Positions 17,122 through 59,700 of a stretch of 64,000 bases of DNA are shown here, one piece after another. How positions within the stretch are numbered: the stretch's first letter is position 1; each line of letters starts with the position of its first letter. Under the pieces are notes generated by a model. That model ran no database searches and was not told the DNA's origin. It saw only the letters and a program-made list of their open reading frames with translations. This stretch comes from a virus. The stretch is from IMG/VR virus record IMGVR_UViG_3300044641_002513, positions 24,897 through 88,896 of that record; one strand, written 5' to 3'. The translations under genes and the position numbers were made by a program.

Positions 17122-17143
17122 TAAATAAATAATACAACTAACT

Positions 17144-17662: not shown

Positions 17663-17672
17663 CAATAAAAAA

Positions 17673-34668: not shown

Positions 34669-35526
34669 ATGAGATTAGCTGAACTATACGCAAACAAATT
34701 ACAAGAATTACAGGCACAAGACCCACCTGACGGAGGACTAAAATCGTTAAGTGTTGAAGACCGTACTAAACTAGTTTACGATTATGTAGCTAAGAGTATA
34801 GCAAAAGCAAAAGAGTCGGGTGCTATAGCTCCAGGAGAAAACTTAGATGCTTTAGGAATCACTGCTCAAATAATGTTTGAGAGTGGTAACTTAGATTCAG
34901 AATTATCATCTAAGTACAACAATTTTGGAGGATTAAAAGCAAGTTCAAATTGGGGAGGAAAAACTGTAGCAATGAAAGCAGGCGACGGTAAAGTAGCTAA
35001 TTGGAGAGCTTACGATACACCTGAAGAAGGACTAGCAGCACAAGTAAACTTTTACATAGAAAATCCTAGGTATAAAAAGAACGGAGTGTTTAATGCTAAA
35101 AATCCTAAAGAACATTTAGAAGCTGTTGCTAGAGCAGGTTACGCAGGTAACGAATCTAATTATGTTAGTAGTGTAATGACAATGGTTAATAGTATTCCAC
35201 AAAGATTAAAAAAGAGTAATCCTGAATTATTAGCACAGTGGACTGCTCAAAAATCTACTATGGGAATGCAAGGAGTAGAACCTCAAGTAATACAACAGTC
35301 TACACCTGTACCTGTTGATGCTTATAACAAATTAAATATTTATCCAGAAATAAATAAATCTCCATATCAAAGTACTAGTATAGTAGGTATGGATAATATA
35401 AAACTATCTAAGCAACAACAAGGAATTGAAGACCAATTAACAGAAACAATGATTACTCCTGAAAAGATGACTGCACCTAAAGGTTGGTTTGGTTCAGGTA
35501 AATCAATGTTCTTTGGAAATAAATAA
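34669..35526 (+). CDS. GH73 (FlgJ-like) peptidoglycan hydrolase
   Basis: AQIMFESG, YNNFGGLKA, WRAYDTPEEG, NPRY, AGYAG. Confidence 0.85.
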   Translation: MRLAELYANKLQELQAQDPPDGGLKSLSVEDRTKLVYDYVAKSIAKAKESGAIAPGENLDALGITAQIMFESGNLDSELSSKYNNFGGLKASSNWGGKTVAMKAGDGKVANWRAYDTPEEGLAAQVNFYIENPRYKKNGVFNAKNPKEHLEAVARAGYAGNESNYVSSVMTMVNSIPQRLKKSNPELLAQWTAQKSTMGMQGVEPQVIQQSTPVPVDAYNKLNIYPEINKSPYQSTSIVGMDNIKLSKQQQGIEDQLTETMITPEKMTAPKGWFGSGKSMFFGNK

Positions 35527-35568
35527 GATTAATTGAATAAAAAATTATAATTTTATAAAAATTTTACT

Positions 35569-38121: not shown

Positions 38122-38124
38122 CCG

Positions 38125-41140: not shown

Positions 41141-44100
41141 ATGCCAGAAGAAGACAAACCTGTAAAACCCAAAGGAGTAAAAGGCGTTTCTACTGTTGGA
41201 GGACCTTCTATAACAATTCCTGATTATCAGCCGTATTACGAATACTTAAAGCCTACTACGGATAAAGAGAAATTCTTAGCAGGAACTACTGGTAGTATAA
41301 CGTCTGGCATGACTGATGCTACTATTAAAACTACTGGTTTAGTAGATGCTAGATTAGCTAGTTTATATACTCCTATAAACTTAGCTAAAGCTATTCCTGA
41401 CCAATTTGAAAGAGAAAAATACATAGCAGAGCACGGGTCTAAAATGGTGCAACTATTAGACCCTAATAAATATGGTATTAAGTTTAACAATGATGCATTA
41501 GATTACAGCATATTTAAAGCTAAGAACTACGATATACAATTAAAAAAGTTCTTAGATGATTTAGATGAGAACCAAGGATTTTTAGCAGCATTAGGTAACA
41601 CAGGTGCTAAGTTAGTAGGTAAAACTGCTACAGCTGTAGGAGGATTAATACCTTTAACTTACGGTGTTGGTGCTGCTTTATTTAGTTGGGATTCTAAAAA
41701 ACTATTTGACAATACATTATTTGATGCTTGGGAATCAGCTGACCACTACTTAGATAGAAAGTTTGCCGTATACGGAGGAGCTGACTATTCAAAAGGAGAT
41801 AAATCTTTCTTTGGAAGATTTGCTGACAACCCAATGAAAAGTATCAATGCTGATATTATTCCAGCAGCTGCATTTGTTGCAGGAGCTGTCTTAACAGAAT
41901 TTGCAGCAGGTGCAATTACAGCTGCTACAGGTGGAGCCGCTGGAGGAGTGTTTGCAGCTAATACTGCTAGACTAGCAGCACAATCTGTTAATGTTTTTTC
42001 TAAAGGAGTTAGAATAGCTAGAGGACTAGATACTTTATCTGACTTTAACAATATGAGAAAAATAGTTGACCTAACTCAAAAGATAAGAACAGGTATAGGC
42101 ACAGCTACTACTATGGTTCGTACAGCTGGTTACGAGTCAAGTTTAATTGCTAGAGATACTCAAAAAAGAACAGAGCTACAAGGTAGACTAAACTATATAC
42201 AAAGCAATCCTGAGTTACACGAACAAGCAAAAGTATTAGCTGAACAAGGTTATACTGAAGATGAGATTAGCGAAAGATTATCCGAAAAAATTGACCCATC
42301 TGTATTATCAAGAATAGATTATGCTGCTGAACAAGCAGGTGAATTAGCCTGGTTTTCTAACGTGCCACTAGTAGGGTTTTCTAATATTATTCAGTTTGGT
42401 AAAAGTTTAAACTTTAGTTACCGTTTAGGGAACTCTTTAAGCAAAGCTTCTAGAATTAATCCATTAAGAGGAACAGTTATCAATGAAGCTGGAGAAATGG
42501 TTTCTAAAGCATCTGTTGCTACTAGAGGACAAAAAGTATTAGGCTACGGAATGACTGCGGCTAAAGGAGGTTTAACAGAATCTTTTGAAGAGTTTTCTCA
42601 AGGAGCAATGGAACAAGGTTACTCTGATTTCTACGCTTCTCAGTTTAAATCTTCTAACATAAACAATACTGTAAGCTTTATAGACTCAATGACTAAAGCT
42701 ACTAGAAACTATTGGAACTCTACAGAAGGTAAAGACTCAATGACTATCGGTGCTTTAATGGGTATGTTAGGTATTCCTTTACCTATTTCTATTGACGCAC
42801 AGACTGGTAAAGGTAAACTAGGAATGCAGTGGTACGGAGGAGTTTACGGAGAATTTAAAGACCTTAAAAAAGATATAGCAAGAGATAAAGAAATAGCAGA
42901 CTTAAGAAATAAAAATAGTATTAATCCTGTCTTAAAAAACAATTTTGAAAATGCCATTAAGAATATGGACATTCAAGATGATATGGATGAAGCTATCAAA
43001 AAGCAAGACGTATTTACTTTCAAGAACAAAGAGTTTGAACAATACCATACTTTTGTTAATACTAGACATAAAAACGGTGTATCTGATACTATCTATCAAG
43101 ACTTAGATGCATTAGACCAAATGGACTTAAAAACTTTTAATGACCAATACGCATTTAAAGGATTTGAGTTTACAGCTGAAACTAAAAAAGAAGCTATTGA
43201 GAAAACTAGAAAACAAACTAAAGATATTTTAGCTTCTCACAAAGAAGTAGAAACTTTATTTAATGATTCTAGACTAGCTGTTGACAGATTGTTTAACAAG
43301 AAGTATAGAGATGCTGACGGTAAACTAATGTTTGCTCTTAAAAAAGCTAATGGAGATATAATAGATACACAGACTGCTTATGAGTTTATGGACGTACTCC
43401 AAAACGAATTAGTTTATCTACATAGTACTAACAAAAACTTAAATAAAAGAGAAAAAGAATTAAAAGAACAAATAGGTAATTTAACTGGTAACAGTTTTAA
43501 TACTTCTCTTTCTAATAAAATAGTAGCTAAAACAGCAGGTGTATCAGAGAAAGACTCAGATATATCTATTGAGTATGCTACAACTGCTAGAGAAATGTAC
43601 AAAGCTCAGTTAGCTGAGTTAAAAGAAAGTGATCCTATACTTTACGATTTAGTAGAAGCTCAGTTAAAACCCTTAGTACAAGATTTAATTAAGCTTAACA
43701 ATAACAAAGCTAAAAACGCTTCTCTTTACAATACATTGTTTACTGAAAAAGGAGCTAGAGATTTTATTAATCTACATGCTGAGTACACTGCTAAAAAAGG
43801 CGAAATAATTAAAGAAGCTATTCTTAAGAAACGAGAAGAAGAAACTGCAAAAGCAAGAACTTCTGAAACTGTAAAAAAGGCTAGCGTAGACGAACAAGCT
43901 CTTAACGGCACTAATACCATTGCTTCCAACAAAGCTAAAGCTGAAATGGATGCAATGAATGAAGCTCTTTCTAACATAGCTGCTGAAGAATCAAGTGGTA
44001 GTACGGGAGACCTTTCAGAATTAATTAATTCAGTTAGTGGAGATGTTATTGTTGAACAACTTCAAAAATCACCTGCACTTTTTATACAGGTACTAGAATA

Positions 44101-45265
44101 CTTAGAAAAACAAGGAACTCCTTTAATAGGCATTAGCAACATTGATCAACTATCTGAGACAATGGCTGCTGACCCTTCTATCATAGGAACACTAAGCAAT
44201 GCTTTAATGGCTCTTAGAGAACAGTATAACAAAGCTACTGTAGTTCCTCCTGTTACACTAGAGTACGCTGATACTACTGACGAGAATGATGTAACTCCTT
44301 CTAACAATGCTTCTTTAGCTGACCTTTACAAAGGTAAACTAGAAGAACTAAATGCATTAAGTATATTCCAATCAGGTTCTAACGTTAGTGAGCAAGCTAT
44401 TATTCCTGTAACTCACGATAAGAAAATTACTAACGGTGAAGTAGAAAGAGACGAAGCAAATGGTAAGTTTAAACCTTGGTACTTTGTTAGTCAAGGACAA
44501 GTACTTACTTCAGACCAACCTGTTGATGCAGCGTTACTTAACTCTCCTGAGTTCCTAAACAATGAGGAGTTAGGTTCTAAAGTTGTTAATGCTACTTTTA
44601 AAATTGCGGACAACGACTACAACAAAACAGATAGAGCTGCTGAAGATATTGCTATTGACATTTATCACAACGATGTATTTATAGGAAGATTACCTGCTTT
44701 TAAAGAAGGTATGGCTAGTCATCTATTAGCTTTACGTCAAGCTGTTGTAGCTCAAGAAACAGTTGCTCCTATAACTACTAATCAAATGTCTGTTGGTAGA
44801 CAATTATCTACAACTGCTGTTCAAAAATTAAATAAATTAGGTTTTACAAATGATGTAATTACTTCTATGTCTGATAAAGATGTAGAAACAGCTAAAACAT
44901 TTTCTTCAAAAGAAGATGCTAAAGAAATGCTTGATAAGTATGTTAAACCTGCTGTAAATACTAATCAACAAGAAGTAGAGGTATTAAGAGCTAAGGAGCA
45001 AGAAGAAATAAAAGCTAAGTTTCCTGATGCTGAATATAAAGCTGATGGTAAGATTGATGTAACTAAGTTGTCTGCTAAAGATAAAAAAGTTTATAAAGAT
45101 ATTTATAAAAGATATGATGCATTAATTACACCTCGATTAGAACAAGCTAAAAAAGATGCTAAAGAAATAGTAGATAAAAACTTTGAAGACATTGCTATAC
45201 AGCTTGCCAATAGTAAAGATGAAAGATTCTTTAATGAGAATAATGAATTTAAAAAATGTAAATAA
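41141..45265 (+). CDS. giant cargo protein 1 of the virion RNAP cluster, with TM segments
   Basis: 1374 aa; Ala/Gly hydrophobic stretches, ESFEEFSQ motif, coiled coils. Confidence 0.75.
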   Translation: MPEEDKPVKPKGVKGVSTVGGPSITIPDYQPYYEYLKPTTDKEKFLAGTTGSITSGMTDATIKTTGLVDARLASLYTPINLAKAIPDQFEREKYIAEHGSKMVQLLDPNKYGIKFNNDALDYSIFKAKNYDIQLKKFLDDLDENQGFLAALGNTGAKLVGKTATAVGGLIPLTYGVGAALFSWDSKKLFDNTLFDAWESADHYLDRKFAVYGGADYSKGDKSFFGRFADNPMKSINADIIPAAAFVAGAVLTEFAAGAITAATGGAAGGVFAANTARLAAQSVNVFSKGVRIARGLDTLSDFNNMRKIVDLTQKIRTGIGTATTMVRTAGYESSLIARDTQKRTELQGRLNYIQSNPELHEQAKVLAEQGYTEDEISERLSEKIDPSVLSRIDYAAEQAGELAWFSNVPLVGFSNIIQFGKSLNFSYRLGNSLSKASRINPLRGTVINEAGEMVSKASVATRGQKVLGYGMTAAKGGLTESFEEFSQGAMEQGYSDFYASQFKSSNINNTVSFIDSMTKATRNYWNSTEGKDSMTIGALMGMLGIPLPISIDAQTGKGKLGMQWYGGVYGEFKDLKKDIARDKEIADLRNKNSINPVLKNNFENAIKNMDIQDDMDEAIKKQDVFTFKNKEFEQYHTFVNTRHKNGVSDTIYQDLDALDQMDLKTFNDQYAFKGFEFTAETKKEAIEKTRKQTKDILASHKEVETLFNDSRLAVDRLFNKKYRDADGKLMFALKKANGDIIDTQTAYEFMDVLQNELVYLHSTNKNLNKREKELKEQIGNLTGNSFNTSLSNKIVAKTAGVSEKDSDISIEYATTAREMYKAQLAELKESDPILYDLVEAQLKPLVQDLIKLNNNKAKNASLYNTLFTEKGARDFINLHAEYTAKKGEIIKEAILKKREEETAKARTSETVKKASVDEQALNGTNTIASNKAKAEMDAMNEALSNIAAEESSGSTGDLSELINSVSGDVIVEQLQKSPALFIQVLEYLEKQGTPLIGISNIDQLSETMAADPSIIGTLSNALMALREQYNKATVVPPVTLEYADTTDENDVTPSNNASLADLYKGKLEELNALSIFQSGSNVSEQAIIPVTHDKKITNGEVERDEANGKFKPWYFVSQGQVLTSDQPVDAALLNSPEFLNNEELGSKVVNATFKIADNDYNKTDRAAEDIAIDIYHNDVFIGRLPAFKEGMASHLLALRQAVVAQETVAPITTNQMSVGRQLSTTAVQKLNKLGFTNDVITSMSDKDVETAKTFSSKEDAKEMLDKYVKPAVNTNQQEVEVLRAKEQEEIKAKFPDAEYKADGKIDVTKLSAKDKKVYKDIYKRYDALITPRLEQAKKDAKEIVDKNFEDIAIQLANSKDERFFNENNEFKKCK

Positions 45266-45276
45266 ATAATAAAACA

Positions 45277-45750
45277 ATGGAAAAATTACTTACTGACCTA
45301 GAACAAAAAGAATTAAATAAGTTTGGTAAACTAGAATTAACAGCTTCTCAAGCTTACTTACATCTATCTAATAGAATGAAAATTTTCGGTTACTTTGGAG
45401 CTGAAAAGTTTTTTTTGAGTGAGTCTAACAGTGAAAGAAAGCACTACGTTAAAATTGCAAAGTTTGCTAATAATTTAGGGTGTGAGCTATCTGTAGAAGC
45501 ACTTATAGCAGTGCAGTGTGATTGTACAGATATAAAAAGTAGTTTAGAGATGGCTTACCAAATGGAAAAAGATTTGCTGATGGAATACGAAAAGTCTGCT
45601 AAAAACCCAGAACTTTCGTTAAAAGTTGTACTTTTGTTACAAGACTTTACCACACATCAGGTAAGAGCTGTAGGGGAGTATGGAGACTTACTTGCACGAT
45701 TAGCACTTACTGATAATATGTTATTGTTCGATCAAGAACTAGGTAATTAA
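45277..45750 (+). CDS. ferritin-like protein (non-heme FtnA type)
   Basis: ELTASQAY...FFLSESNSERKH...E...HQ...LFDQEL four-helix ferritin pattern. Confidence 0.85.
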   Translation: MEKLLTDLEQKELNKFGKLELTASQAYLHLSNRMKIFGYFGAEKFFLSESNSERKHYVKIAKFANNLGCELSVEALIAVQCDCTDIKSSLEMAYQMEKDLLMEYEKSAKNPELSLKVVLLLQDFTTHQVRAVGEYGDLLARLALTDNMLLFDQELGN

Positions 45751-45761
45751 AAAATTAGATT

Positions 45762-48700
45762 ATGGCTTGTAAATATTGGTATGACGGTAAGTGGCGTACG
45801 GAAACGGAGTTTAAAAAAATCTTATCTGAAGGTTTACTTAATAACTTATTAGCTGACAATACTGTTAGCTTAGAACAGTTAATGCCTAGTGAGGCTACAC
45901 AACAAACCTTAGTAGAAGAAGGAGCTACCAAAGCTCCAGTTACTCTAAGAATACGACACAAAGCTCAAACCAAGATTAACAACGGCCGAGAACCAGGAAA
46001 ACCTAACATTCCTCTTGCAAGAAATCCAAAAGACGTAATAGAAGAATTTGTAGCTCAAGGTGGTAAACCTTTTGAATTAAAGTTTGTAATAAAAGTTAAA
46101 GGAGAATTAAGAACAGGTAAAGGTTCTGCAAACGAAAAACTTAAACAAAACTTATTAAGTTCCCCAGTTGGGAACAAAATAGTAAGCCAGCTACAAGAAG
46201 GTATTGTATATATGCTAGTACCTTCTGTTTACGGAATGTATCCTATTAGAGTCTTTAACAACTTCCTTACTAATACTAAAAGTTTTGGTACAGTTAAACA
46301 AGCACTAGAAGATTTAAAAAAATCTACTAAAGTAGAAGACATAGCTAAGCATAGAAAGACTATAGAGTCTTTACTCTATCGTACTACTGTAACTTACGAC
46401 AATACTAAAAAGACTTTTACAGTCAAACAAATTGATGGTAAGAATAACATTCTTGCTCAGACTTTTCCTACTACTAAAGATGTTGCAGATTTCTTAGGTA
46501 AACAATTACAAAGAGTTGCTTACAATAATATAAATAGTGGTAACTATAACGAAGTACTAGCATCTAACGGAGTTATTACTACAGACTTATTTTCTGATAG
46601 TGCTAGCTTTTTTAACTCATCTTCTTTTGTCTTAGAAGCTTTTAGAATGTCTGAAAAAGACCAAGAGGCTTTAGACACTGTATTTGATTTTACTTTTGAT
46701 GAAGAATCAATAGCTGCTGCTACGGTTACTACTGAAAAGAATGAAGAACCTATTACACCGTCTCAAAACAAGACTGCCGAAAGCCCTATCTATTCTGCTA
46801 CTATTGACGAACTGATACCTGAGATAAAAGAAGAACCAGGTCCCTCCATAACTATTAAATTAGATGCATTAGCTAATGACGCATCTAAGTTTGTTACTAT
46901 AGAATCTGTTGTTAAAGGAGGTAAAATCTTAGTAAGTAGAGTAACTAAAAAACAAAAAGTAGTTAAAAAAAATGAAACAGATACTTTTGAACCTATATAT
47001 GATATTACATCAGGTAATGCTTATAAAGAAGCTGTATTAAAGTTCTTTGATAGTAAAGAAGTTAAAGCTAAAAAAGATGAGTTAGCAGGTAAACCGACAC
47101 CTGTTGCTAAACCTATAGAAGCAGTTAATGCTAAAAAAGCAGAGATTAAAGAATTAGAAAAAGAAAAAGCTGGTTTATTAGCACAAAGTAAAAGTTTTGA
47201 AAAAATTACAGCTAAAACACCTAAAACTGTTTCTGTATACTTAAGTTCTGCTAATACTGACGGTAGTTTTAATAAATCTTCTGAAAAAAAATCTTTTGTT
47301 GATGGTGCTTCTATACTTGCTTTTGAGCCATTAGGTAATAATAGATTTGCTGTTTACATAGATAGTAAAAATCCAAGTGCAGTAAAAATGGCTTTGCAGT
47401 ATCCTGATAAAAGAATAGACCCAACTTTTGATAGAATATCTGCATATAATCCTAAAGCTACTTCTATACAAACAGTAAAACCTAGTATTGTAGAATTACA
47501 GGGCGACAAGTATATATTAATAGAAAAAGGAACAGTTGACTTTGACAATGTAGGAATAAATAGAGAAAATGCTAAAACTACTGATGTAGATACTACAAAA
47601 ATAGATGATAGCATTAATAAAGCTAAACAAGAACTACAAGCTATAGAAAGCCCACCTACAGTAACATTAATAGCTGAAGAAGTTGGATCTAATAAAGTTA
47701 ATATAATACAAACAAATAAGCCTACTATCCAAACAATTGGTAATGTAACTTTTGGTACAGCTAATAAACAAGATACTAATGAAAATAACGAAGATGCTGT
47801 CTATGTAGATACAGTAAATGGAATATTTATTCTAGCAGACGGTATGGGTGGAGAGTATGCAGCTTTTGGGGTAGCTAGAAACTTTTCTAAAGACACTATT
47901 AATTACTTACTTACAGGTAATTTTTCAAGTTCTCTTACAAAAATAGTAGAGTATATAAATAGTAAAAAAGGTGCAACAAAAAATATAAATGAGTTACATA
48001 AAGAAATTGAAAATATATTAGGTTATAAACTTAGTTCTCAAAGTGCGGAAAAAATAAATGAATTTATAATTTCTGTTTGGAACAAAGAGACGGTTAGTAC
48101 TCAAGGAAATAGATTAGGAGCAACAGCTTTAAAAGCAGAAAAAATAAGTAGTAATACTTATAAAATTCAAAAAGTAGGAGATACTGTATTTTTTGTAGTA
48201 GATAAGAATGGCAAAGTTGTTCAAAAACACGGACTTTCAGATAATGCTTCAACACAAGGTTATTTAACTTATTTGAAAGATGGAAAAGCTTTTACAAATT
48301 CCCCTAAACTAGATGAGTTTACAGTTACTTTAAATGAAGGAGAAACTTTAGTTTTATCAACGGATTTTATAGAAACAGATAAAGCTATCCAAGATTTTAT
48401 TGATTCTAAGTTTGGTAAAAATTTAGATTTTGCTAAGTTTCAAGAAAATAATAAAGATGATGATTCTACATTTATTACTATTGAATATGATACAGATGTA
48501 GTTGCTCCAAAACAATCTACTGCTGAAGAAGTTGCTCCTGCTGCACCTAAAAGTTTTATGGGTGACGTATTAGCTTCTATGATTGATGTAACTGCTACAA
48601 TGGAATCAGCTCCTATAGATATTAAACCTGAAGAAGGTACAGAGCAAAGTCTAGAATCTTTAGTAGCTGCACAAAGTAATAGAGAAATAGTGCCTGAACA

Positions 48701-51700
48701 AGATATTAGTTTTGAGGATGTATTTGGAGATGATTTAGATACAGAAGGATTTGACGGAGCTACTAACAGAGGAACTCCTAATGTCAAACTAAAAGCAACT
48801 GAAACTGTTGATGGAACTTCTTGGAGTCAAGCAGAAGAAATACAATACTTAAAAGATACAATTGGAGTACAGTTTGAAGAAGCAGAAAAAACTAATACTC
48901 TAAAACTATTTAACACATTAGAAGATTTAGAAGCATACTTGCCTAAAGAAACTTACGAAATGTTATTAGAAACAAGACGTAACGGTAAGTTTGTCCACGG
49001 TTTATTTACGACAGCTGCTGTGTTTATGGCAAGTACAGCTGAAGCTGGTACTAGTTATCACGAAGCTTTTCACGTTGTATTTAACTTAGCTTTACCACTA
49101 GAAAAACGTATAGCCTTAATTAACGAAGCGTATGTAAAATATAGAGCAGAGTTACTTGTAACTAAATATACTAACTCTAAAGGAGAAACTAAATTTAAGT
49201 ATCCTACTTATTTAGAAGTAGAAGAGTTACTTGCGGATAAGTTTATGGAGTTTGTACTTAACAAAGAAGTACTACCTAAAGAAGAAGCAGTTGAAGAAGG
49301 TCCTAGAAAAAGAATACCTATACTACCTAAGTTTACTAGCTATACTACAGAAGAAGGCTACGTAACTGTTCCTAGTGTAGAAAAAGAATTTAAAGAAATA
49401 GGAAAGTTTTTCAAAGGACTTTCTAGAATGTTGACTGTTTTCTATAAAAAGAATAGAGTAATTAATATTGATAATTTATTTGAAAACATTGACTTAGGAG
49501 TTTATAAAGACAAAATTAACTTTAGTAAAACATCTATTCCTAACTTAGCTAGATTACACGCTACTGACGTACAACATAGATACGTTAACCCAATTGAAGA
49601 AGCACATGCTTTTGAATACCTAAGTTCATTAAAAGATGAAATATTAGAGCAATACCGAGCTAAAGTAGACCCTAGTTACAAATTAAATCCTAAAGAGTTA
49701 ATTGCAAAAATGGGAGTACACACAATGTACTCATCTATGCTTAGTAAGCTAAAAGCCGAGGCTATTTACAACAAGAAAAGTGGTAACACAGAAATGGCTC
49801 AACGCCTTGCTAAACTTTATTTCATTTTTACTAATGGCAAAAAGAATATAAAAGATACAGTAATTGAAGGCAAAGGAATTGAAGTAACTGAATTTACTGA
49901 AGCAAGTGACTTGTTATTACGTTTCAATAGTAGTCTTAGAAAAGAAGGATTGTATATTACTTACAATGGATTAAAAGATGCTAAAGTAAAAGAAAAAGGT
50001 GTAGAAGAAAACGAAGAAGACAGTTTTAAAGCATACGAAGAAGGAGAAGATACCTACGAAGAATCTTGGATGCGTTCTCACATTGAAACTAATCCGATGG
50101 AGTCTACTAGTCAACGACTAAAAAGTTTCTTTGCAAAGATTCCTAAGTACAAATCTACTAGAAAGAACAGTGCTACAATGGTTAATTCTTTTGGAGTAAC
50201 AATGAAAGAAGACCCAGGAGTTGTATTTAAAACATTAGCTACTAAAATATCTAACAGCTATTCAGTTAGTGATATGTTAACTAAGTTATCTAAGATAAAC
50301 CGTCCTTATATTAAAGACGTATTAAACGAGATAACTAAAGATGAAAAACTCTTAACAGACTTATGGATAGCTATAGGACAAAAAAGCTTTACTACTTTCT
50401 CATTTGTTTGGGAAACTAATAACGAGATGAGAGTAGTTACTTCTAACAGAAAAACATTAGACAATGTTATTAAAGAAGAACTAATAGCTAATTTTTTAGT
50501 ACCTAGTAATCCACTACTTAATACTAAAAACAATGTATTTGATGTAGAGCGTGTTAACACAGACGAAGCTGCTAATTTCTTAGAAGATTTAAATACTATT
50601 TTGCCTATTTTAAATAATACAGCATTTTGGAATAATAAGAAAGAAGTAATAGACATGTTCAACAATGTTGCTAAAACTTTTCAAAAATATAAAATAGAAT
50701 TAACTGCTGATGATTTAGTTAATGTTTGGGAAAAAGGAGGAAAGCAAGAATCTTATAAAAATGTAGTTGAAGTAATTGAAACTATTCAAAATATTGCTGT
50801 AGAGCTAGTTAAAGGCAACAATCCTTTTACTTCTTCTTATCCTACTGAAGAAGAGATTAGTAGAGAAGTAAAAAAAGAAGGAAGAACTTTATTAGAAAAA
50901 CTTGCTAAACAAATAATGCCAGTAGTAGAAAAGGATATAATTCTTGCTTCTAGAAACATTAATAACAAGACAGTATACAGTCTTATTCAGTCTGGGTTTA
51001 TTAATAAACAGATGGAAACTTATAAGAACCGCCAAAAGCTAACAGAATACTACGAAAGTATAAAGAACGATGCTTTTGTATCTGAGTTACCCTTACTAAA
51101 AGATTTACTAGACGATACTAATAACACTCAAGATATTCTTAGTGTAATCTTTTTAGACGGATTTACTCGTCAAAACAAGAATAAAGCTGTTACCTATACA
51201 GATATGTCTGATATAGAAATGGAAGCTACGTCAATGGCAATGTTCTATAACAATGGAGCTAACGATGCTTCATTCTTTAAAATGCCAATACCTTCCGATG
51301 CTCCTACTTTACCTTATATCAAAAGTAATAAGTTAGAAAGAGAAGAGATAATAGACAAGTTAGTCCTAACAGCTAAAGCAGAGTATAACAGAATTAGAAA
51401 AGTTAAGACTGCTGATGATAATGTACTAGACTTAATCCCTAACTATAAAAAAAGAGGAGAAAAGTTTATACTACTTAGTTTCCTTAACGGAAAAGTTAAC
51501 ACTAATCAAAATTTTGATGAAGCTCTAGTAAGAGCTGAAATAGATAAGTTCTTTAGCTACGACATCAACATAAGTCCTTTTTTCCAAACAGAAATGGCTA
51601 AGTATAAAAAAGAAGGTATTATAACTTCTTACAACGCAGAAACAGGTGCTATTAATTTTGCTCCAGAGATAATGGATAAGACTATTAAAGACGGTACTAC

Positions 51701-54700
51701 TTTCTTTAAAAACTATCTACTTAACACTTATTACTTTAACACTCAAATAAGTACTCTCTTAGCAGGTGACCCTGCTTTTTATAAAAGTACAGGTGACTTA
51801 CAAAAAAGATTTAAACAAGTAATAAGTCCAGGAACTTACGCTAACACTAGTCAGCTACCTACTTATTACAAAGCAATAATTCTTAATGATGAAATAGTAC
51901 CTACAGAAAAAGCAACTTTTGACCACATCGAATCTATTATATCTAAGTCTAACTTAACTCCATCAGAAAAAAATTCTTTAATTGCTTTTTGGACTGCTAA
52001 GACTACTGCTAAAGACGGTAACAATACTTCTGATGCTGCTACTTACTTATCTCCTGAATTAAGAAAACAAAGATTAGAGGCTTTAGGTAGATGGACACCT
52101 GAACATGATAAAGCGTACGAAAGAGTATTAGCAGGAACAGAGACTATAGAAGATTTGATGTTAATGGATCCACCATTTAAACCTGAAAAACCTTTTGTAT
52201 TTACTCAAAGAGTTGTAGAAAACGGTGATGGTACTACTACGGTAGTTCCTATTCAAATCAAAAACGCAGAAACAGTTTTAACTAAATCTTTTGCTCAAAA
52301 GAAAGACCAGGATGGTAACTTCTTGTATCCTAAATTAGCAGCTATCTATGAAGATATGGTTGTTAATCAGTTATATGACACTGCTATATTTGAATCAGCT
52401 GTTAAAGTAGGAGGTATAGGAAACACTGTTGAAGGGGGTAAAGTAAGATTTACAGATTACACTGAAACTGATGGTAAGTATTCAATGCCTGAAGGAGCTA
52501 AAATACTAGACTTAAGACACGAAGACTGGAGATTACAGCAAGAAACTCCTCCTCACTACATTGATGACAAAACTAACTTTGCTACACAGTTAAGAAACCT
52601 TATCATAGCTGACTTAGATATGAGTGGCGGTTATACTATTGGTGGCAAAACTTTTAAAGGTGCTGAGTTAGCTCTAATGTATCAAAAAATAGTAGTTGAA
52701 GATTTAAAATCTTCTTTTGAAGAAGTATCAGAAGAGTTCTTAAACAGTAATGGAGATATAGACTACACCAAATTAGTAGAAATATTAAAAGAAGAAATAC
52801 TAGACAGAGACTTAGGACAAGATTACTTAGATGCTATTGCTTTAGTACCTGAAGTATTAGTTGACGGAAGTCAAACTATGACTACTACTCTTCCTTTATA
52901 CCACCCAATGATTATGTATAAGATGGAGTCTGTACTAAACTCTTTCTTTAAAAACAGAGTTACTAAGCAAAAGATACGAGGAGGCTCACTAGTCAACACT
53001 ACTTCTTTTGGCGTAAGTGACAAATTAAAAATAGAAGTAAGTGCTGATGGTACTATTACTTATCAAGCATTAATGCCTCATACTTCTAAAAAATATTTCC
53101 CTACTAACGAAAATGGAGAAGTAGATATAGAGTTTGTTCAAAAACACGCAAAAGAACTACTTAAAATTATCGGTATCCGTATTCCAACAGAGGATAAATA
53201 CTCAATGTTTAATATTAGAATAGTTGGATTTACTCCTCCTGCTATGGGACCTGCTATTATTCTTCCTAGAGAAGCTACTACTATGGCTGGGCTTGACTTT
53301 GATATTGATAAATTGTATTTTATGTCTAGGGCTTTTACTGTTAACAAAAAAGGTATCCCAAAAATAGTTAAATACATCAAGGCTCCTAAAAACAAAACAG
53401 AAGCATTAGAATCAGCTTCTAATATTTATGCTGATTTTAAAAGCTTTAAAAAGTTTGCAGAGAAATATATCAAAGACCCTAAACAACGAGAAGCTGTATT
53501 AGAAGCTCGTAGAGCTCTTACTGATAAGCAAGCAAGCAATACACTTAGTTCTAAAGAAATAGAAGAGTTTAAGGCTACTATAACAGCAGAAAAAAAAGAT
53601 AGAGATGCTGCTAAAAAGTTGTACGGTAAAAACTCAGAAGTGTATAACAAACATCAAGATAATATTGACAACTTGTATGCAATTTTTAACGAAGAAATGG
53701 AAGTCTTTGATGAACGTAAAGCTGAAATAGGAGACCAAGCAAACGAAATACTTGATACTATAGCTGATGTATTGCTAGATGTGAAGTTTAACTCTGTAGA
53801 GTTTAATACTAAACAAGCTAGAGATAATATGAAGTTAGATATAATGGAGGGTGTACTAGAAAACAGTCACACAGCTCCTAGTATTCTTAACGTAGGTAAC
53901 TTTGATATATTAAAAGAACGTGCTGCTAAAATTAGATTACTACAAGAAGGTGTAGACCCAGCTACAGTAAACAGTTATAGTGGAGAAACACTAATGAAAG
54001 AATCAGAAAAACTAGATGATGCAGAAGGATTTAATTTCTTTTATCCTAGTGTGCAGTTAGAGTTGTTTAAGAGAAATATGATGGGTAAAAAGCTTATTGG
54101 TATTTTTGCTAACCACAACACCCACCACGCCAAAGCACAGTTTACTAATCTTCAACTTAAAAACGAACTTATACTAAACGAGCAATCGTATATAATGTTG
54201 AACAAACAGTACGATAATGACGGCAATAGAATATCTAGAAAGCTAGCTACCAACTTAGCAGCTGTAGTGGATAATGCTAAAGACCCAGTAGCTTCTTTTA
54301 TCAATATGAACACGTTTACTGCTAACACTATTGCTCTACTAGAGCGTTTAGGTGTTAGTGATGATTACATCTATGCACTTGTTAATCAGCCTGTTGTACT
54401 AGAGTTAACTAGAGAATACTTTAATAACCAAGGTTCTTTAGTAACAGAAAAGAATTTTGCTAACATTAAAAATAAGTGGCAAACAATACTTACTAAAAAA
54501 CTTAAAGAAGCTCCTGAAGAAGAGTTAGCTATAAGTATAACAACAGATACACTAGAAGATAACTTAAAAGGAGATGGCTCTACTCAATACTATAAAGTAC
54601 AGTTAGAAGCTTTAAAACTATTTGAAAAGTTGTATGGTATTGGAGAAGAGTTAGCTGTAGGTATTCAAGCTGCTAAAGTTGATACTACAGGTGTAGGACC

Positions 54701-56795
54701 TACAAGTGCAGATAACTATGTTACTATACATAAACAAGAAAAGATACTACAAAACGTAGCTAACGATACCAATAGTATAGTTGGACTAGAAGAAGTCTTT
54801 TGGAAAGGTTCTGCTAATCAGCTGATGATGCCTGGTTTTAATAAGTATGGTATTCTTTCTCCCATCAATATATTAGAGAAAATATTTCCTTCTATTGGTA
54901 CAGTTGATACTAACACTTTTAAAATTACATACTCACTACTAGGAGACATCAAAAATCAATTTGCTTCTTTCAAAGCTAACGGCCTATTAAAAGAAAAAGA
55001 AGCAAGAATGCTTAACACTCACTTTATGAGTTTTATAGCAAGTGGTTTTCCTTTCTTTAACTACTCTCAAAGTAAAGAAATTATTAAAGAACTTCCTGCT
55101 AAAGTAGCTGCGTTTAACAAAACTATTGATAGCTCTTCTCCTTACAAATATCTTTTTAACAACATTAATGTAGTTAAGCCTGATGGGTATGCTGCTCTTA
55201 CTCGATTAGAGTTTTACAGCACAGGTAAAAGTGATTTAGAACTAAGTAGATTAAAAGCATCTTGGGAAAGAATGTTAGTAGACACTAATCCAACTGTTAG
55301 ACAATTAGGACTCGACTTAATTAAATATACCTTCTTTACTAATGGATACGGTTACGGGCCTAATACCTTTGCTCACTTGATTCCTATTAAGTTTTGGACG
55401 GATGCTTACCAATTAGAAAATAACATTACTGATTCTAAAGGAAACACGTTTAATCAATATCTTAAAAAGGCTCTATTCTCTGATAAAATAATAAAAAGAG
55501 AAGATACTTATAGACAAAGATTTGTTGACCAATTTATTAGAAATAACTTTGAAAAAGAAAAGTTTGTTCAATCTGTTAAAGTAGAAAAAGTACTTAATGC
55601 TAACGATGAGAAAATAGACAGTTTAACTGAAGGAGCCGCTGTTTCAACTTTAGCTGCTCAAGTAGCATCAGGTGTAGTGCTAACTTCTAAAGGTTATTTA
55701 GTAGTTAACAAAAAGAAAAACAAAGCTACTCTTTACCCTAACAGTGCTAGAAATCCTATCAAGTATTTAAAGATTTATGTTAACGGTAAACCTCGTTTAT
55801 ACGAATATGTACAAACTGAATTTGAACAACAAAATCCTAGTGATTACCAAGTTAGTAGCCCTGATAGAATTACTTATAAACCTGTATCTAAATTAGGTTT
55901 ACCAAACTATATTTTAGAATACAACTATGGTGCTAACATAGAAAACTCTGTATTAGTTAATGCTAAAAATACTCCTAACCCTAAAGTAGCTCCTAAAGCT
56001 GCTACTATGGACGATGTTTCTAACTCTTACTTAGCTTCTTTCCAAGCAGAAGAAGCAGCTGCTGCTATGCAAGGAGATAGTCAAGATTTATCTACACTAT
56101 TACCTCCGTCTTCTACTCCACTATCTGCTGGAATGGATTTCTTACAAAATGCTATGGATAGGTCTGCTACTATGCAAGAAACTATGAACAGTGAGGAAGG
56201 CGTTACCCAAACTAATACAGTCAAAAAAGGAATAGAAATAAGTTCTAATGCTAAAGGATTAGCAGCAGCTCTTACTAATCCTACAGAACTTGCTAAATCT
56301 AAAGGCAATTTAACTGAATCTTATCCTGTTGAATTTAGAGGTAAAACTTATAAAGACGCAGAAGCAGCATATCAAGCATTAAAATCTACAGCTACTAAAG
56401 ATGAAGGTCCTAACAATACGTATAACTTAATGGTAAATATTATTAAGGCTAAGTTAGAACAATATCCTAGATTAGTTAATGAAATAACTAAACAAGGAGG
56501 TTCTACTTGGATACTTTCTTCTACACATCAACCTACTAGACAAAATAGTGTTTGGGAAACTGGAGGTAAAAATTGGTTTATTAAATCACTTAATGATGCT
56601 TATTTATCTACTCAACCATCTACTAGTAGCCAAACTCAAACTAATACTTGGGACGAATATAAAGCATTAATAAAAGAACTAATTAAGGTTGATAAAGATG
56701 CAGCTTTAGAAATAGGTGTATTAACTGAAGAAGAATTTTTATCTTTACCTGAAAAAGAAAAGAAAATGGCCATTTGGCAAATTAAAAACTGTTAA
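45762..56795 (+). CDS. virion-packaged single-chain RNA polymerase with accessory PP2C, zincin and NADAR-like domains
   Basis: RIPTEDKYS, GLDFDIDK (53295-53312), VDNAKDP and ESAVKVG polymerase motifs; NED/ADGMGG/GD/DD PP2C motifs; HEAFH (49059-49073); YKDAEAAYQALK. Confidence 0.92.
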   Translation: MACKYWYDGKWRTETEFKKILSEGLLNNLLADNTVSLEQLMPSEATQQTLVEEGATKAPVTLRIRHKAQTKINNGREPGKPNIPLARNPKDVIEEFVAQGGKPFELKFVIKVKGELRTGKGSANEKLKQNLLSSPVGNKIVSQLQEGIVYMLVPSVYGMYPIRVFNNFLTNTKSFGTVKQALEDLKKSTKVEDIAKHRKTIESLLYRTTVTYDNTKKTFTVKQIDGKNNILAQTFPTTKDVADFLGKQLQRVAYNNINSGNYNEVLASNGVITTDLFSDSASFFNSSSFVLEAFRMSEKDQEALDTVFDFTFDEESIAAATVTTEKNEEPITPSQNKTAESPIYSATIDELIPEIKEEPGPSITIKLDALANDASKFVTIESVVKGGKILVSRVTKKQKVVKKNETDTFEPIYDITSGNAYKEAVLKFFDSKEVKAKKDELAGKPTPVAKPIEAVNAKKAEIKELEKEKAGLLAQSKSFEKITAKTPKTVSVYLSSANTDGSFNKSSEKKSFVDGASILAFEPLGNNRFAVYIDSKNPSAVKMALQYPDKRIDPTFDRISAYNPKATSIQTVKPSIVELQGDKYILIEKGTVDFDNVGINRENAKTTDVDTTKIDDSINKAKQELQAIESPPTVTLIAEEVGSNKVNIIQTNKPTIQTIGNVTFGTANKQDTNENNEDAVYVDTVNGIFILADGMGGEYAAFGVARNFSKDTINYLLTGNFSSSLTKIVEYINSKKGATKNINELHKEIENILGYKLSSQSAEKINEFIISVWNKETVSTQGNRLGATALKAEKISSNTYKIQKVGDTVFFVVDKNGKVVQKHGLSDNASTQGYLTYLKDGKAFTNSPKLDEFTVTLNEGETLVLSTDFIETDKAIQDFIDSKFGKNLDFAKFQENNKDDDSTFITIEYDTDVVAPKQSTAEEVAPAAPKSFMGDVLASMIDVTATMESAPIDIKPEEGTEQSLESLVAAQSNREIVPEQDISFEDVFGDDLDTEGFDGATNRGTPNVKLKATETVDGTSWSQAEEIQYLKDTIGVQFEEAEKTNTLKLFNTLEDLEAYLPKETYEMLLETRRNGKFVHGLFTTAAVFMASTAEAGTSYHEAFHVVFNLALPLEKRIALINEAYVKYRAELLVTKYTNSKGETKFKYPTYLEVEELLADKFMEFVLNKEVLPKEEAVEEGPRKRIPILPKFTSYTTEEGYVTVPSVEKEFKEIGKFFKGLSRMLTVFYKKNRVINIDNLFENIDLGVYKDKINFSKTSIPNLARLHATDVQHRYVNPIEEAHAFEYLSSLKDEILEQYRAKVDPSYKLNPKELIAKMGVHTMYSSMLSKLKAEAIYNKKSGNTEMAQRLAKLYFIFTNGKKNIKDTVIEGKGIEVTEFTEASDLLLRFNSSLRKEGLYITYNGLKDAKVKEKGVEENEEDSFKAYEEGEDTYEESWMRSHIETNPMESTSQRLKSFFAKIPKYKSTRKNSATMVNSFGVTMKEDPGVVFKTLATKISNSYSVSDMLTKLSKINRPYIKDVLNEITKDEKLLTDLWIAIGQKSFTTFSFVWETNNEMRVVTSNRKTLDNVIKEELIANFLVPSNPLLNTKNNVFDVERVNTDEAANFLEDLNTILPILNNTAFWNNKKEVIDMFNNVAKTFQKYKIELTADDLVNVWEKGGKQESYKNVVEVIETIQNIAVELVKGNNPFTSSYPTEEEISREVKKEGRTLLEKLAKQIMPVVEKDIILASRNINNKTVYSLIQSGFINKQMETYKNRQKLTEYYESIKNDAFVSELPLLKDLLDDTNNTQDILSVIFLDGFTRQNKNKAVTYTDMSDIEMEATSMAMFYNNGANDASFFKMPIPSDAPTLPYIKSNKLEREEIIDKLVLTAKAEYNRIRKVKTADDNVLDLIPNYKKRGEKFILLSFLNGKVNTNQNFDEALVRAEIDKFFSYDINISPFFQTEMAKYKKEGIITSYNAETGAINFAPEIMDKTIKDGTTFFKNYLLNTYYFNTQISTLLAGDPAFYKSTGDLQKRFKQVISPGTYANTSQLPTYYKAIILNDEIVPTEKATFDHIESIISKSNLTPSEKNSLIAFWTAKTTAKDGNNTSDAATYLSPELRKQRLEALGRWTPEHDKAYERVLAGTETIEDLMLMDPPFKPEKPFVFTQRVVENGDGTTTVVPIQIKNAETVLTKSFAQKKDQDGNFLYPKLAAIYEDMVVNQLYDTAIFESAVKVGGIGNTVEGGKVRFTDYTETDGKYSMPEGAKILDLRHEDWRLQQETPPHYIDDKTNFATQLRNLIIADLDMSGGYTIGGKTFKGAELALMYQKIVVEDLKSSFEEVSEEFLNSNGDIDYTKLVEILKEEILDRDLGQDYLDAIALVPEVLVDGSQTMTTTLPLYHPMIMYKMESVLNSFFKNRVTKQKIRGGSLVNTTSFGVSDKLKIEVSADGTITYQALMPHTSKKYFPTNENGEVDIEFVQKHAKELLKIIGIRIPTEDKYSMFNIRIVGFTPPAMGPAIILPREATTMAGLDFDIDKLYFMSRAFTVNKKGIPKIVKYIKAPKNKTEALESASNIYADFKSFKKFAEKYIKDPKQREAVLEARRALTDKQASNTLSSKEIEEFKATITAEKKDRDAAKKLYGKNSEVYNKHQDNIDNLYAIFNEEMEVFDERKAEIGDQANEILDTIADVLLDVKFNSVEFNTKQARDNMKLDIMEGVLENSHTAPSILNVGNFDILKERAAKIRLLQEGVDPATVNSYSGETLMKESEKLDDAEGFNFFYPSVQLELFKRNMMGKKLIGIFANHNTHHAKAQFTNLQLKNELILNEQSYIMLNKQYDNDGNRISRKLATNLAAVVDNAKDPVASFINMNTFTANTIALLERLGVSDDYIYALVNQPVVLELTREYFNNQGSLVTEKNFANIKNKWQTILTKKLKEAPEEELAISITTDTLEDNLKGDGSTQYYKVQLEALKLFEKLYGIGEELAVGIQAAKVDTTGVGPTSADNYVTIHKQEKILQNVANDTNSIVGLEEVFWKGSANQLMMPGFNKYGILSPINILEKIFPSIGTVDTNTFKITYSLLGDIKNQFASFKANGLLKEKEARMLNTHFMSFIASGFPFFNYSQSKEIIKELPAKVAAFNKTIDSSSPYKYLFNNINVVKPDGYAALTRLEFYSTGKSDLELSRLKASWERMLVDTNPTVRQLGLDLIKYTFFTNGYGYGPNTFAHLIPIKFWTDAYQLENNITDSKGNTFNQYLKKALFSDKIIKREDTYRQRFVDQFIRNNFEKEKFVQSVKVEKVLNANDEKIDSLTEGAAVSTLAAQVASGVVLTSKGYLVVNKKKNKATLYPNSARNPIKYLKIYVNGKPRLYEYVQTEFEQQNPSDYQVSSPDRITYKPVSKLGLPNYILEYNYGANIENSVLVNAKNTPNPKVAPKAATMDDVSNSYLASFQAEEAAAAMQGDSQDLSTLLPPSSTPLSAGMDFLQNAMDRSATMQETMNSEEGVTQTNTVKKGIEISSNAKGLAAALTNPTELAKSKGNLTESYPVEFRGKTYKDAEAAYQALKSTATKDEGPNNTYNLMVNIIKAKLEQYPRLVNEITKQGGSTWILSSTHQPTRQNSVWETGGKNWFIKSLNDAYLSTQPSTSSQTQTNTWDEYKALIKELIKVDKDAALEIGVLTEEEFLSLPEKEKKMAIWQIKNC

Positions 56796-56797
56796 TT

Positions 56798-59700
56798 ATG
56801 TCTTACTGTATCAATATAAATCATCCTGAATACATACAATTATTACAAAATTCTAACCTAAAACCAGCTGTATTAAAAGCTAAAATAGGTGTGTGGATGG
56901 AAGAGAATAATAGTACGGATTTTCCTACTTTAGAAGAGTTAAATGTAACTTCTGGGACTGTTAATGCTACTTTAAAAATTATTGATGCTTTAGAAAAAAT
57001 ACAGCGTAATGTATTTAGTCAAGATAAGTTACAAGGTTGGGTTAACGATTTGCAAAAACAAGGTGCTTCTAGTCAACAAATAGGGCTTTTTAAAGAAGTT
57101 GCTAAACCAGGAATGACTAAAGACCAAATAGCTACTAGTATTGCTGCTAGTTATAGTTATACTGTTGAAATTAATACTGCTATTAAAGATGTTACAAAAG
57201 AACTTAATCAAAGATTAGATTCTTCAGAAGAAGAATATAATTCTATTAAAACTAAGGAAGTTGAATCGACATCTAATCCTTCTAGTATTACTAAAACTTT
57301 TTATAAAACTTTTGGAAATAATACATACACTAAAACTATTACAACAAATCCTATAACAGGAAAAGAAGAAAAACCAAAATATTTTATTGCTTCTAAAACA
57401 GTAAACCAAACTGATTACTACTCTAACCTAACAGTTCCAGGTGGTACTAACTATACAGAAAACGAAATAGCTACTCCTGAAATTATACCTAGTATAAAAG
57501 GACATGCTCAGTTTGCTACAGATAAAGGTATTGGTTGGTTTAGAAGTGATGAACAAGCTAAAACATATTATGATTCAGAAGTAGGAGAATATTTAGTTGA
57601 AACTGAAAGTACTGGAGATTTATTTGAAGATGTTTTTGGTACTAATAAAAAAGTAATACCAACTACTACTAAAACCCGTAGAATACTAGAAGTACAATCT
57701 GATTTATTTCAGAAATGGAGAAATAATTTTGAATTTGAAGGTAATAAATATACTGCTAAAAAAGATAATAATAATGTATGGCATTATTATAAAAATGGTA
57801 GTGAAATAAATTCTAATGAATATACTAAAATTTGGGATACATTTTTAGAAACTTATTTAGATAATGCAGATGCTTTTACTAAGTTGTTACAAAAAGACAA
57901 TAACTGGGTAAACTTCTTTGTTAAATCTGTTATACAAGATAGTGCTAAGAAAGGATATGAGAAAGTGTTATTTCCTAGTGGTGATACAGCTAGTAAAGTA
58001 GAAGGTCATACTACTTTAGAAGAGTTTAAGAAACAGAAAGAAGATAGGATTAAAGAACTTGAAGAAAAAGAAGTTAATAAAGCAAAAGATATTGGAAAAA
58101 ATATAGATTTACCATTTCCTGATGCTAAAGGTATTACTTCTTATATATATACACAAAGAGAGTATGAAACTTGGAAAGAGCTTAATCGTAGGGAAATAAC
58201 TCAACTTAAACAAGAACTTGAAAGAGTAGAAGGTCCAGAAGGATTTGGTGCTTTAAAACCTATCTACAACTTCTATGAGAACACTGTAAAAAACATTCTT
58301 AATAAACAATATGGTAAAGAGAATGTAAAACAAATTACAGACGAATACGGTAATACTTGGAATGAGGTTAGTGTAGAAGTACAACCTGCTAAAGATACTA
58401 TCTTATATCAAACAGATAGAGCTAAATCTTACCAACAAAAAGCTAAGACTATTTACTTTAATGAAGTAAGAGGCAAGCAATTAAGTAATTCAGATATATC
58501 AAATATTAATGCAAAACTAAGAAAGCTATCTGATGAAATAGGAGATGTTAATTGGAATTTAAGACAAAGCAGTAATACTAATAATTACTACATAGCTGGT
58601 TACAAAAATGCTCCTGTAACAATGGACGACTACTATTCTCCGTATGCAGGAGGAATGTTTAGACAATTAACTACACAAAGTTTAGAGTCAAGAGTAGAAG
58701 AGTTAGATAAAAAGTTAATGAGTTGGGCAAGAAAGCACGGTATTTCTGTAGAAGCCTTAAAAGCAGTAATGGAGAAGTTTCCTGATAGATATGATGGAAC
58801 AGCTTTAGGTATTGCTGATTTTGCTAAGAAGTTAATTGCTGTTGCTGATGGAGCTCGTATAGACACTTTACCTGAAGAGATAGCACATTTTGCTATCGAA
58901 TTACTAATCAAAGACCCTACTGTTGTACAAGCATTAGAAGAAGTTGTTAATACACCTGAATACGCAGAAGTTAAAGAAGATTACAAAGATATTTACGAAG
59001 AGGAAATAGACTTTAGAAAAGAAGCTCTAGGTAAAATACTAGCTCAAGAGATAGTTACTAACTTTAAGAAGTCTCAAGAAAACCCTAATAACGGTTTTTG
59101 GAGTAAGATACTTGATATTGCTAACAAGTTCTTTAACTGGGTAGGTACTAACTTTTCTAAAAAATCTGCACCTAGAACTGCTATTGAGGCTGTTGTAATA
59201 CCTCTAGCTAATAGTATTTTAAATCAAGAATATTTAGGTACTCTAGATAATATAGATTTAAATATAGAAGAAGAACCACAAATACTTTACCAAACAAATC
59301 CTAATGCTCAACCTGTTACTAATAGTAATGTTGAACAAAAGAAAAAGTTCTTAGAAGGAGTAGTAGTACAATTAAATAATAGAGTAAAAAGATTTAAGAA
59401 CTCTGCTAAATCTCAAACAGAGATTGTTGCTCTAAACATAGAGATAACTAAGCTACAAAAATTAATAGCTCAATCTGAGTTTGATTTAGGTATTAGTAGT
59501 TTTGCTCAATTAGCTAGTAAAGAACTAGATGCTATTTTATCTTATTTAAATAAAGCTCTAAAGAATAAAAACCTTAATGGAGATAAATTAGCTTTAGCTC
59601 AAGAATTTGAAGAAACATATACTTCTTTATTCTTAGAATTAAAACAAAGTATGTACGAATACGAGTTTGAAGAAACTGAAATTGATGCTTTATTAGCTAT

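Follow-up and report, generated by a model that had tools for sequence, protein, structure and literature searches.

Cysteines at the gene breaks of a giant RNA polymerase cargo module suggest a joined protein chain in crAss-like phages

Three giant cargo proteins with four cysteines

The crAss-like phages are the most abundant human gut viruses. Here we describe 64,000 nucleotides of viral DNA (IMG/VR record IMGVR_UViG_3300044641_002513, positions 24,897 to 88,896; the whole stretch is called the window), whose plus strand carries the structural and cargo module of a crAss-like phage, with portal, head, tail and cargo genes followed at the end of the cargo block by three giant open reading frames (ORFs) that we label A, R and B. 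Protein A (41141-45265, plus strand; 1374 amino acids, aa) resembles crAss001 gp47, a cargo protein associated with the RNA polymerase (RNAP), and shows homology to the A part of the related locus L011 and to L012_A. Protein R (45762-56795, plus strand; 3677 aa) belongs to the virion RNAP family of crAss001 gp50 and phi14:2 gp66. Its identity as a crAss-like virion RNA polymerase is confirmed at the level of sequence by matches to the solved phi14:2 RNAP (PDB 6VR4_A; phmmer E 1.9e-25 over R residues 1982-2531) and to crAss001 gp50 (tblastn, 28% identity, E 1e-81), and by the catalytic motif AGLDFDID (R residues 2509-2516; 53286-53309, plus strand), which is invariant in our RNAP-core alignment A1. 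R also contains a zincin metalloprotease motif, YHEAFH (residues 1099-1104; 49056-49073, plus strand). Protein B (56798-62425, plus strand; 1875 aa) is a crAss001 gp49-like, RNAP-associated cargo protein that matches gp49 at 23% identity. Searches of PHROGs and Pfam returned no family for R or B and for A a single PHROG (32390), the function of which is not known. The position of R in the cargo block after cargo protein 1, taken together with the published proteomics of crAss001 and phi14:2, indicates that R would be packaged in the virion and ejected.

A first-pass annotation of the window had pointed out that the facing ends of these proteins carry cysteines (Cys), that no further Cys could be found in the three proteins, and that the two outer ends have none. 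The ORF translations agree in every detail: A ends ...FKKCK, R begins MACK and ends ...QIKNC, B begins MSYC, and the computed count is four Cys in 6926 aa (0.06%). These are the penultimate residue Cys1373, the sole Cys of A (codon TGT, 45257-45259), Cys3 (TGT, 45768-45770) and the last residue Cys3677 (TGT, 56790-56792) of R, and Cys4, the sole Cys of B (TGT, 56807-56809), all on the plus strand. Neither the N-terminus of A nor the C-terminus of B has a Cys. At the density of 1.24% seen in the other ORFs of related loci about 86 Cys would be expected in the three proteins (Poisson P(<=4) about 1e-31), and four Cys would each lie at most 4 residues from a separate junction-facing end with a probability of about 3e-12.

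A and R are not direct neighbours, because an ORF of 157 aa (45277-45750, plus strand) sits between them, in the A/R break of the window clade. It is ferritin-like (PF00210, E 1e-10; PF02915, Rubrerythrin, E 7e-5), has Cys at residues 69, 81 and 83, and is probably not a member of any chain formed by A, R and B. The fission between A and R may have been brought about by its insertion, or its insertion may have made use of the fission; it might conceivably have a redox function. Homologous ORFs that resemble it in size and N-terminal sequence (162-163 aa, 4-5 Cys) lie at the R/B junction of L014 and L020.

Terminal cysteines are conserved across the Crassvirales

The survey of relatives covered the Crassvirales together with Flavobacterium phage Fpv1. 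IMG/VR was scanned three times with profiles from RNAP-core alignments, which brought the set to 215 loci with an RNAP, 112 of which remained after dereplication at 85% core identity (L-numbers denote survey loci). The window proteins share just 22-28% identity with counterparts in cultured phages that show the same Cys pattern. In crAss001, the only Cys of A (gp47, 2341 aa) is residue 2339, R (gp50, 2412 aa) has Cys 5 and 2404 plus an internal Cys 1334, and B (gp49, 1349 aa) has only Cys 5; in phi14:2, the only Cys of A (1797 aa) is its last residue, R (2180 aa) has Cys 3 and 2179, and B (1421 aa) only Cys 3. DAC15 has a single Cys in A (residue 2220 of 2222), Cys at residue 5 and at the last residue of R (2265 aa) plus three internal ones, and in B (1369 aa) Cys 4 plus Cys 619, and in cr116_1 the only Cys of A (2556 aa) is residue 2555, R starts MSC and ends ...KKLC, and B starts MAKNSC. 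Phage crAss002, Flavobacterium phage Fpv1 and the Suoliviridae cr10_1 and cr118_1 fit the pattern as well.

Counted over dereplicated lineages, the C-terminal Cys of A is present in 40 of 40 and the N-terminal Cys of B in 71 of 72. The outer termini lack Cys throughout (0 of 21 for the A N-terminus, 0 of 58 for the B C-terminus), and among 187 control ORFs a Cys lies within 12 residues of the N- or C-terminal end in 14% and 10%, respectively. The interiors of A, R and B are strongly depleted, with a Cys density of 0.127% in the relatives compared to 1.24% in the control ORFs. The terminal Cys itself occupies a slightly variable place: it is penultimate in 26 of 30 A proteins, lies at residue 3-8 at the R N-terminus and at residue 3-6 in B, and is followed by 0-9 residues at the R C-terminus; its codon is TGT in 147 cases and TGC in 25. 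In alignments of the last 300 aa of R (A3) and the first 300 aa of B (A4), each of 18 sequences and with a mean column identity of 18-22%, the terminal Cys forms the sole invariant column. Lysine and arginine, which would hint at a more reactive thiol, are not significantly enriched near the terminal Cys (0.16, compared to 0.13 in the background).

Two observations concern individual RNAP genes of the survey. In L066 (6569-14440) the RNAP ORF stays open only when TAG is taken to encode an amino acid (glutamine was used); the terminal Cys pattern holds there too, with the termini MVC... and ...EKIC and a B protein that starts MGNSC. The crAss001-like RNAP ORFs of L028, L031, L037, L064 and L083 have identical termini at lengths of 2412-2755 aa, and this range therefore reflects internal insertions in near-identical phages.

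Junction cysteines follow gene fusion and fission

Four architectures were found, which we write A/R/B, AR/B, A/RB and ARB, with a slash for each gene break. The N-terminal Cys of the R-containing ORF is present in all 64 lineages with a separate A and in none of 25 A-R fusions (those in which the A part is recognised by homology), leaving no discordant lineage. Likewise, the C-terminal Cys of R is found in 80 of 81 lineages with a separate B and in 0 of 23 R-B fusions, with one discordant case. On a tree of the RNAP core the A/R architecture changes seven times, and each of six independent pairs on supported branches is concordant (p=0.031 in a sign test). For R/B there are only about two changes.

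Both Cys of a junction disappear when that junction fuses, and those of the other junction stay. Many A-R fusions, 3900-4900 aa long, have the C-terminal Cys and no other (L011, L019, L021, L022, L042, L062, L146, L158, L209, L214 and Fpv1), and the triple fusion of L085 (2000-18928, on a contig shared with L121), a single ORF of 5642 aa, has none. In several low-Cys R-B fusions (L095, L109) the former junction region is without Cys, and the R-B fusion of p-crAssphage retains just one of the two junction Cys (...NSFNC-PSYT...). The loss of terminal Cys upon gene fusion, which the first-pass annotation had anticipated for crAss-like orthologues, is thus seen in A-R, R-B and A-R-B fusions alike. 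In L008 (30658-31925), a p-crAssphage-like genome (MW067002), two annotated thioredoxin genes lie directly downstream of the RNAP fusion on the opposite strand.

Ten further long ORFs were too divergent for easy assignment. BLAST searches against A proteins classified two of them, and the other eight were kept out of the statistics; none of these eight has an N-terminal Cys and seven have a C-terminal one, the exception being L204, which seems to be an A-R-B fusion, as no B ORF follows it. A hidden Markov model of the A N-terminal domain returned no matches, probably owing to a poor seed alignment.

The break between A and R does not lie at one and the same site in all phages. The literature assigns the zincin motif to a separate RNAP-associated protein (phi14:2 gp65, crAss001 gp47), and in crAss001 (gp47 residue 2156) and L023 this HExxH motif (YHEAFH) is indeed part of A; in the clade of the window it is part of R. 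The break of the window clade, upstream of the zincin domain, therefore differs in position from that of the crAss001 clade, which lies downstream of it. When both are mapped on the A-R fusion of L011, which is sister to the window clade in the RNAP-core tree, the window break falls about 600-700 residues N-terminal of the crAss001 break. A Cys pair flanks both breaks, and neither phage has a Cys at the site homologous to the break of the other. Because both non-homologous breaks carry their own pair, the Cys pair is a property of chain ends and not of one ancestral site. The split/fused pattern and the two non-homologous A/R breaks together support the pairwise linkage of C-terminus to N-terminus that the first-pass annotation had put forward, as far as sequence comparison can do so. 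Its further idea of a chain in gene order agrees with the window and does not extend to the Steigviridae, where A sits on the other strand.

Start-codon mis-calls, frameshifts and interrupted genes

Several apparent departures from the pattern proved to have other causes. The N-terminal Cys seemed absent in crAss002 gp33, L096 and L061, and these are start-codon mis-calls with an internal MSC or MAKKC start downstream. Two loci considered as natural experiments were set aside: the split of B in L011 is a frameshift, with homology continuing across the frames, and the splits in L005 are ambiguous, with overlapping frames and possible frameshifts. Cuts in R in L076, L079 and cr116_1 were rejected as true splits, as the interruptions fall within conserved motifs; in cr116_1 (L150, 8430-19295) a LAGLIDADG endonuclease gene lies within the RNAP DFDxD motif. 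The interrupted RNAP or B genes of L150, L076, L079 and L016 probably carry self-splicing introns, and no Cys pair would be expected at such interruptions because the protein itself would stay unbroken. In L016 (7356-9949) the inserted ORFs encode GIY-YIG homing endonucleases; a 345-aa piece of this locus has a Cys at either end and is uninterpretable since the contig ends there.

A putative disulfide-linked chain and its alternatives

The Cys pattern is thus conserved across the order, present at split and absent at fused junctions, and found at non-homologous breaks. We consider it probable, judging from these comparisons, that inter-protein disulfides join A to R to B as a pseudo-polyprotein for single-file ejection. 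According to this model, A, R and B would be the split pieces of a giant ejected polyprotein that other crAss-like phages encode whole, each with a Cys kept a few residues at most from any end that adjoins a break. An intermolecular disulfide would then link the C-terminal Cys of one protein to the N-terminal Cys of its successor (A-S-S-R-S-S-B), giving a near-linear chain of about 6900 residues with uniform N-to-C polarity, like the polyprotein of the fused relatives, and the remaining Cys would have been purged so that neither branching nor wrong cross-links arise. Once in the cell, host thiols might separate the pieces, or these might remain joined as one complex. A two-thiol bond from C-terminus to N-terminus is the simplest model because it accounts for the paired presence, the paired loss, the bare outer ends, the pairs at new breaks and the purge of other Cys. 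That the bond is a disulfide rather than a metal bridge, that virions contain it, that it orders the threading of the proteins through the tail, and its timing and later reduction in the cytoplasm are all inferred. The published structure of crAss001 provides a favourable setting, as disulfides between subunits occur in the tail and portal vertex of its virions and its cargo proteins must partly unfold to pass constrictions of less than 50 Å (PMC10172136).

A broader proposition is that, whenever the A-R-B gene breaks, a newly evolved terminal Cys pair re-joins the pieces after translation. As a general rule for the Crassvirales we regard this as tentative, with a chance slightly short of even. 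The break would arise by fission or perhaps by gene insertion (for example of the ferritin-like ORF), and the delivered chain would always be continuous, joined either by peptide bonds or by disulfides.

Structure prediction of terminal pairs, which the first-pass annotation had proposed as a check, yielded weak support only. Co-folding of the C-terminal 300 aa of R with the N-terminal 300 aa of B scored 0.43, compared to 0.01 for the best control, with a contact agreement between runs of at least 18% and a partner pLDDT (predicted local distance difference test) of at least 54. In the calibration of this procedure 58 of 80 solved complexes passed the mark, compared to 2 of 110 mismatched pairs, and at a score of 0.60 or less it was passed by only 7 of the 80 and by both of these mismatches.

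The junction Cys might instead be bridged non-covalently by a metal (Zn, Fe or Cu), as an ion or a cluster that they share, with the same tethering outcome. Any two-thiol bridge would fit the pairwise presence and absence, the exactly four Cys of the three-protein phages could fill a tetrahedral site, a His stands five residues past the Cys in many B N-termini (C-x-N-x-x-H-P), and a ferritin-like gene is located in the junction. Yet phages with the AR/B or A/RB architecture keep only two Cys, so that a Cys4 site is not the conserved unit, and a second ligand is not conserved: the Cys is the sole invariant column in A3 and A4, crAss001 and phi14:2 lack the His, and with one Cys per terminus there are no CxxC pairs. 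Moreover, a metal site made from two thiolates alone would be unusual, and we regard metal bridging as unlikely. Slightly less likely still is that the terminal Cys form links between copies of the same protein (A-A, B-B or R-R) or bind another partner from the virion or the host. A single exposed terminal Cys can dimerise, its partner is not directly readable from sequence, and several cargo copies per capsid are possible; for crAss001 the cargo proteins are reported to total about 5.5 MDa, and 12 copies of the N-terminal part of gp45 were fitted in its tail (PMC10172136). Such links would leave unexplained why both Cys of a fused junction vanish together and those of the other junction stay, a behaviour that fits cross-junction pairs, why the outer termini never have a Cys, and why a new break point comes with a new Cys pair.

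The thiols might also be joined only after ejection, with periplasmic thiol oxidases of the host linking the termini into a trans-envelope or transcription complex. This would agree with the assembly of virions in a reducing cytoplasm, and the suppression of Cys in N4-like phages has been ascribed to passage through an oxidising periplasm (PMC11445570). On the other hand, the RNAP has to work in the reducing cytoplasm, crAss001 virions already possess tail disulfides, and the delivery of one pre-formed chain by phages with fused genes suggests that the state of the chain matters before or during ejection; we deem linkage after ejection improbable, about as much so as metal bridging. Least credible of all, and very improbable in our view, is that the Cys have no linking role and are a by-product of nucleotide signals at gene ends, N-terminal processing or shared ancestry. 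The genes of many of these genomes are separated by 2-11 nucleotides and most terminal Cys codons are TGT, both of which count in its favour. However, in crAss001, DAC15 and cr116_1 the A gene lies on the opposite strand, away from R, and its sole Cys is nevertheless C-terminal; the Cys lies 0-9 residues from the end and uses both codons; it is the sole invariant residue at a mean column identity of about 20%; all six independent architecture changes are concordant; and the pair occurs at non-homologous breaks. A junction signal at the nucleotide level does not agree with the opposite-strand A of the Steigviridae, the variable spacing and the use of both TGT and TGC, and these same features place the signal at the protein level.

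Several points weigh against a disulfide chain as the general explanation. In L193 (4118-19995) 62 residues separate the last Cys of R from its C-terminus, and B is preceded by two additional ORFs that lack Cys (333 and 114 aa), and in L086 (6808-11058) a B-like ORF lacks an N-terminal Cys after its first ATG, with a Cys upstream in the stop-to-stop frame. Purging of Cys is not universal, because R of the Steigviridae retains one or two conserved internal Cys and the R-B fusions of the Intestiviridae hold 3-23. Since only about two R-B fusions occur on the tree, few events stand behind the fusion argument for the R-B junction, and the A content of the eight very divergent long ORFs is not demonstrable by homology. 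The prediction of an R-B interface is weak, and what speaks for a covalent link is comparative. Virions assemble in the reducing cytoplasm and gut phages dwell in an anaerobic lumen, which makes the time and place of oxidation hard to determine. Finally, the cargo proteins are unresolved in the cryo-electron microscopy of crAss001, and the published proteomics that we consulted are silent on disulfides (PMC10172136).

Comparison with known systems

It is already known that ejected proteins can be suppressed in Cys and that some crAss-like phages have fused RNAP polyproteins. In N4-like phages the giant virion RNAP and its co-ejected proteins are almost Cys-free (PMC11445570); they are thought to be ejected unfolded, and the RNAP has been described as beads on a string (PMC13434306). 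The interiors of A, R and B are likewise Cys-poor, 10-fold below other ORFs, and their Cys frequency is far under the level of the phage proteome. They differ from the Schitoviridae proteins (N4 gp50, DEV gp71, gp72 and gp73) in that those have essentially zero Cys, whereas A, R and B keep one conserved Cys per break-facing terminus. Furthermore, the RNAP of N4-like phages is one polypeptide, and its fold is unrelated to the two-barrel family of crAss-like phages represented by 6VR4.

Within the crAss-like phages, some encode these parts as one huge polyprotein (Drobysheva preprint). Such fusions, for example that of the catalytic RNAP subunit with a second subunit in p-crAssphage or the triple fusions, contain the same modules in the same order, A with its zincin motif, R and B, and differ in lacking the junction Cys. 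The literature assumes that they are cleaved; the Cys pattern suggests that, conversely, the split versions are re-joined. Disulfides between subunits do exist in purified crAss001 particles (the gp57 dimer, the tail hub and the ring proteins). Their role there is to stabilise the portal vertex and the fixed tail, and the crAss001 paper contains nothing on Cys or disulfides in cargo proteins (PMC10172136).

A functional analogy may be drawn with the di-chain AB toxins. In diphtheria toxin and the clostridial neurotoxins one interchain disulfide holds two chains together that translocate unfolded through a narrow channel and are released by reduction in the cytosol, and the proposed A-R-B chain would share the tether of single disulfides and the narrow channel. 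In contrast to A, R and B, which are separate ORFs with their own starts and stops, the toxin chains arise by nicking of one precursor and their disulfide spans a loop; there is no kinship in sequence or fold.

The crAss-like phages have to store RNAP-associated proteins that amount to about 700 kDa and eject them through a narrow tail, in a way that still awaits explanation (PMC10172136; PMC13434306). We found no mention of junction Cys pairs or of covalent chaining of cargo in the papers on crAss001 (the structural atlas), phi14:2 (preprint), DEV and N4, nor by full-text searches of the literature, which was covered incompletely. A conserved four-residue signature that follows gene fusion and fission leads to the hypothesis that the three proteins exit the capsid as one covalent chain. 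This would reverse the assumption that the fused polyproteins need cleavage, and would account for the extreme depletion of Cys. It also offers a rule for annotation, with M-x(1-4)-C and C-x(0-9)-end marking the termini of A, R and B as well as mis-called starts. Should the general rule be true, the crAss trio would be the functional equivalent of the single beads-on-a-string N4 virion RNAP, and would represent an undescribed way to order protein ejection.

Other features of the cargo module

Upstream of A, and likewise on the plus strand, the module contains the portal gene (7846-10290) and the major head protein gene (11554-13065), after which the tail proteins follow. Cargo protein 1 (35569-38121, plus strand; 850 aa; PF25725) and a 995-aa protein without a family match at the position of cargo protein 2 (38125-41112, plus strand) have no Cys at all and would therefore stand outside any Cys-linked chain. 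A 285-aa endolysin-domain protein in the same region (34669-41112) is Cys-free as well, and two large upstream proteins are Cys-poor, with 4 Cys in the protein starting at 25383 (1416 aa) and 2 in that starting at 29636 (1673 aa, with an endolysin-like domain). By contrast, three small tail-fibre-like proteins of the same late module (16279-18221) consist of Cys to 3.5-5%, and one of them ends ...SCGCSGNC, which suggests that the tail, like that of crAss001, has structural disulfides.

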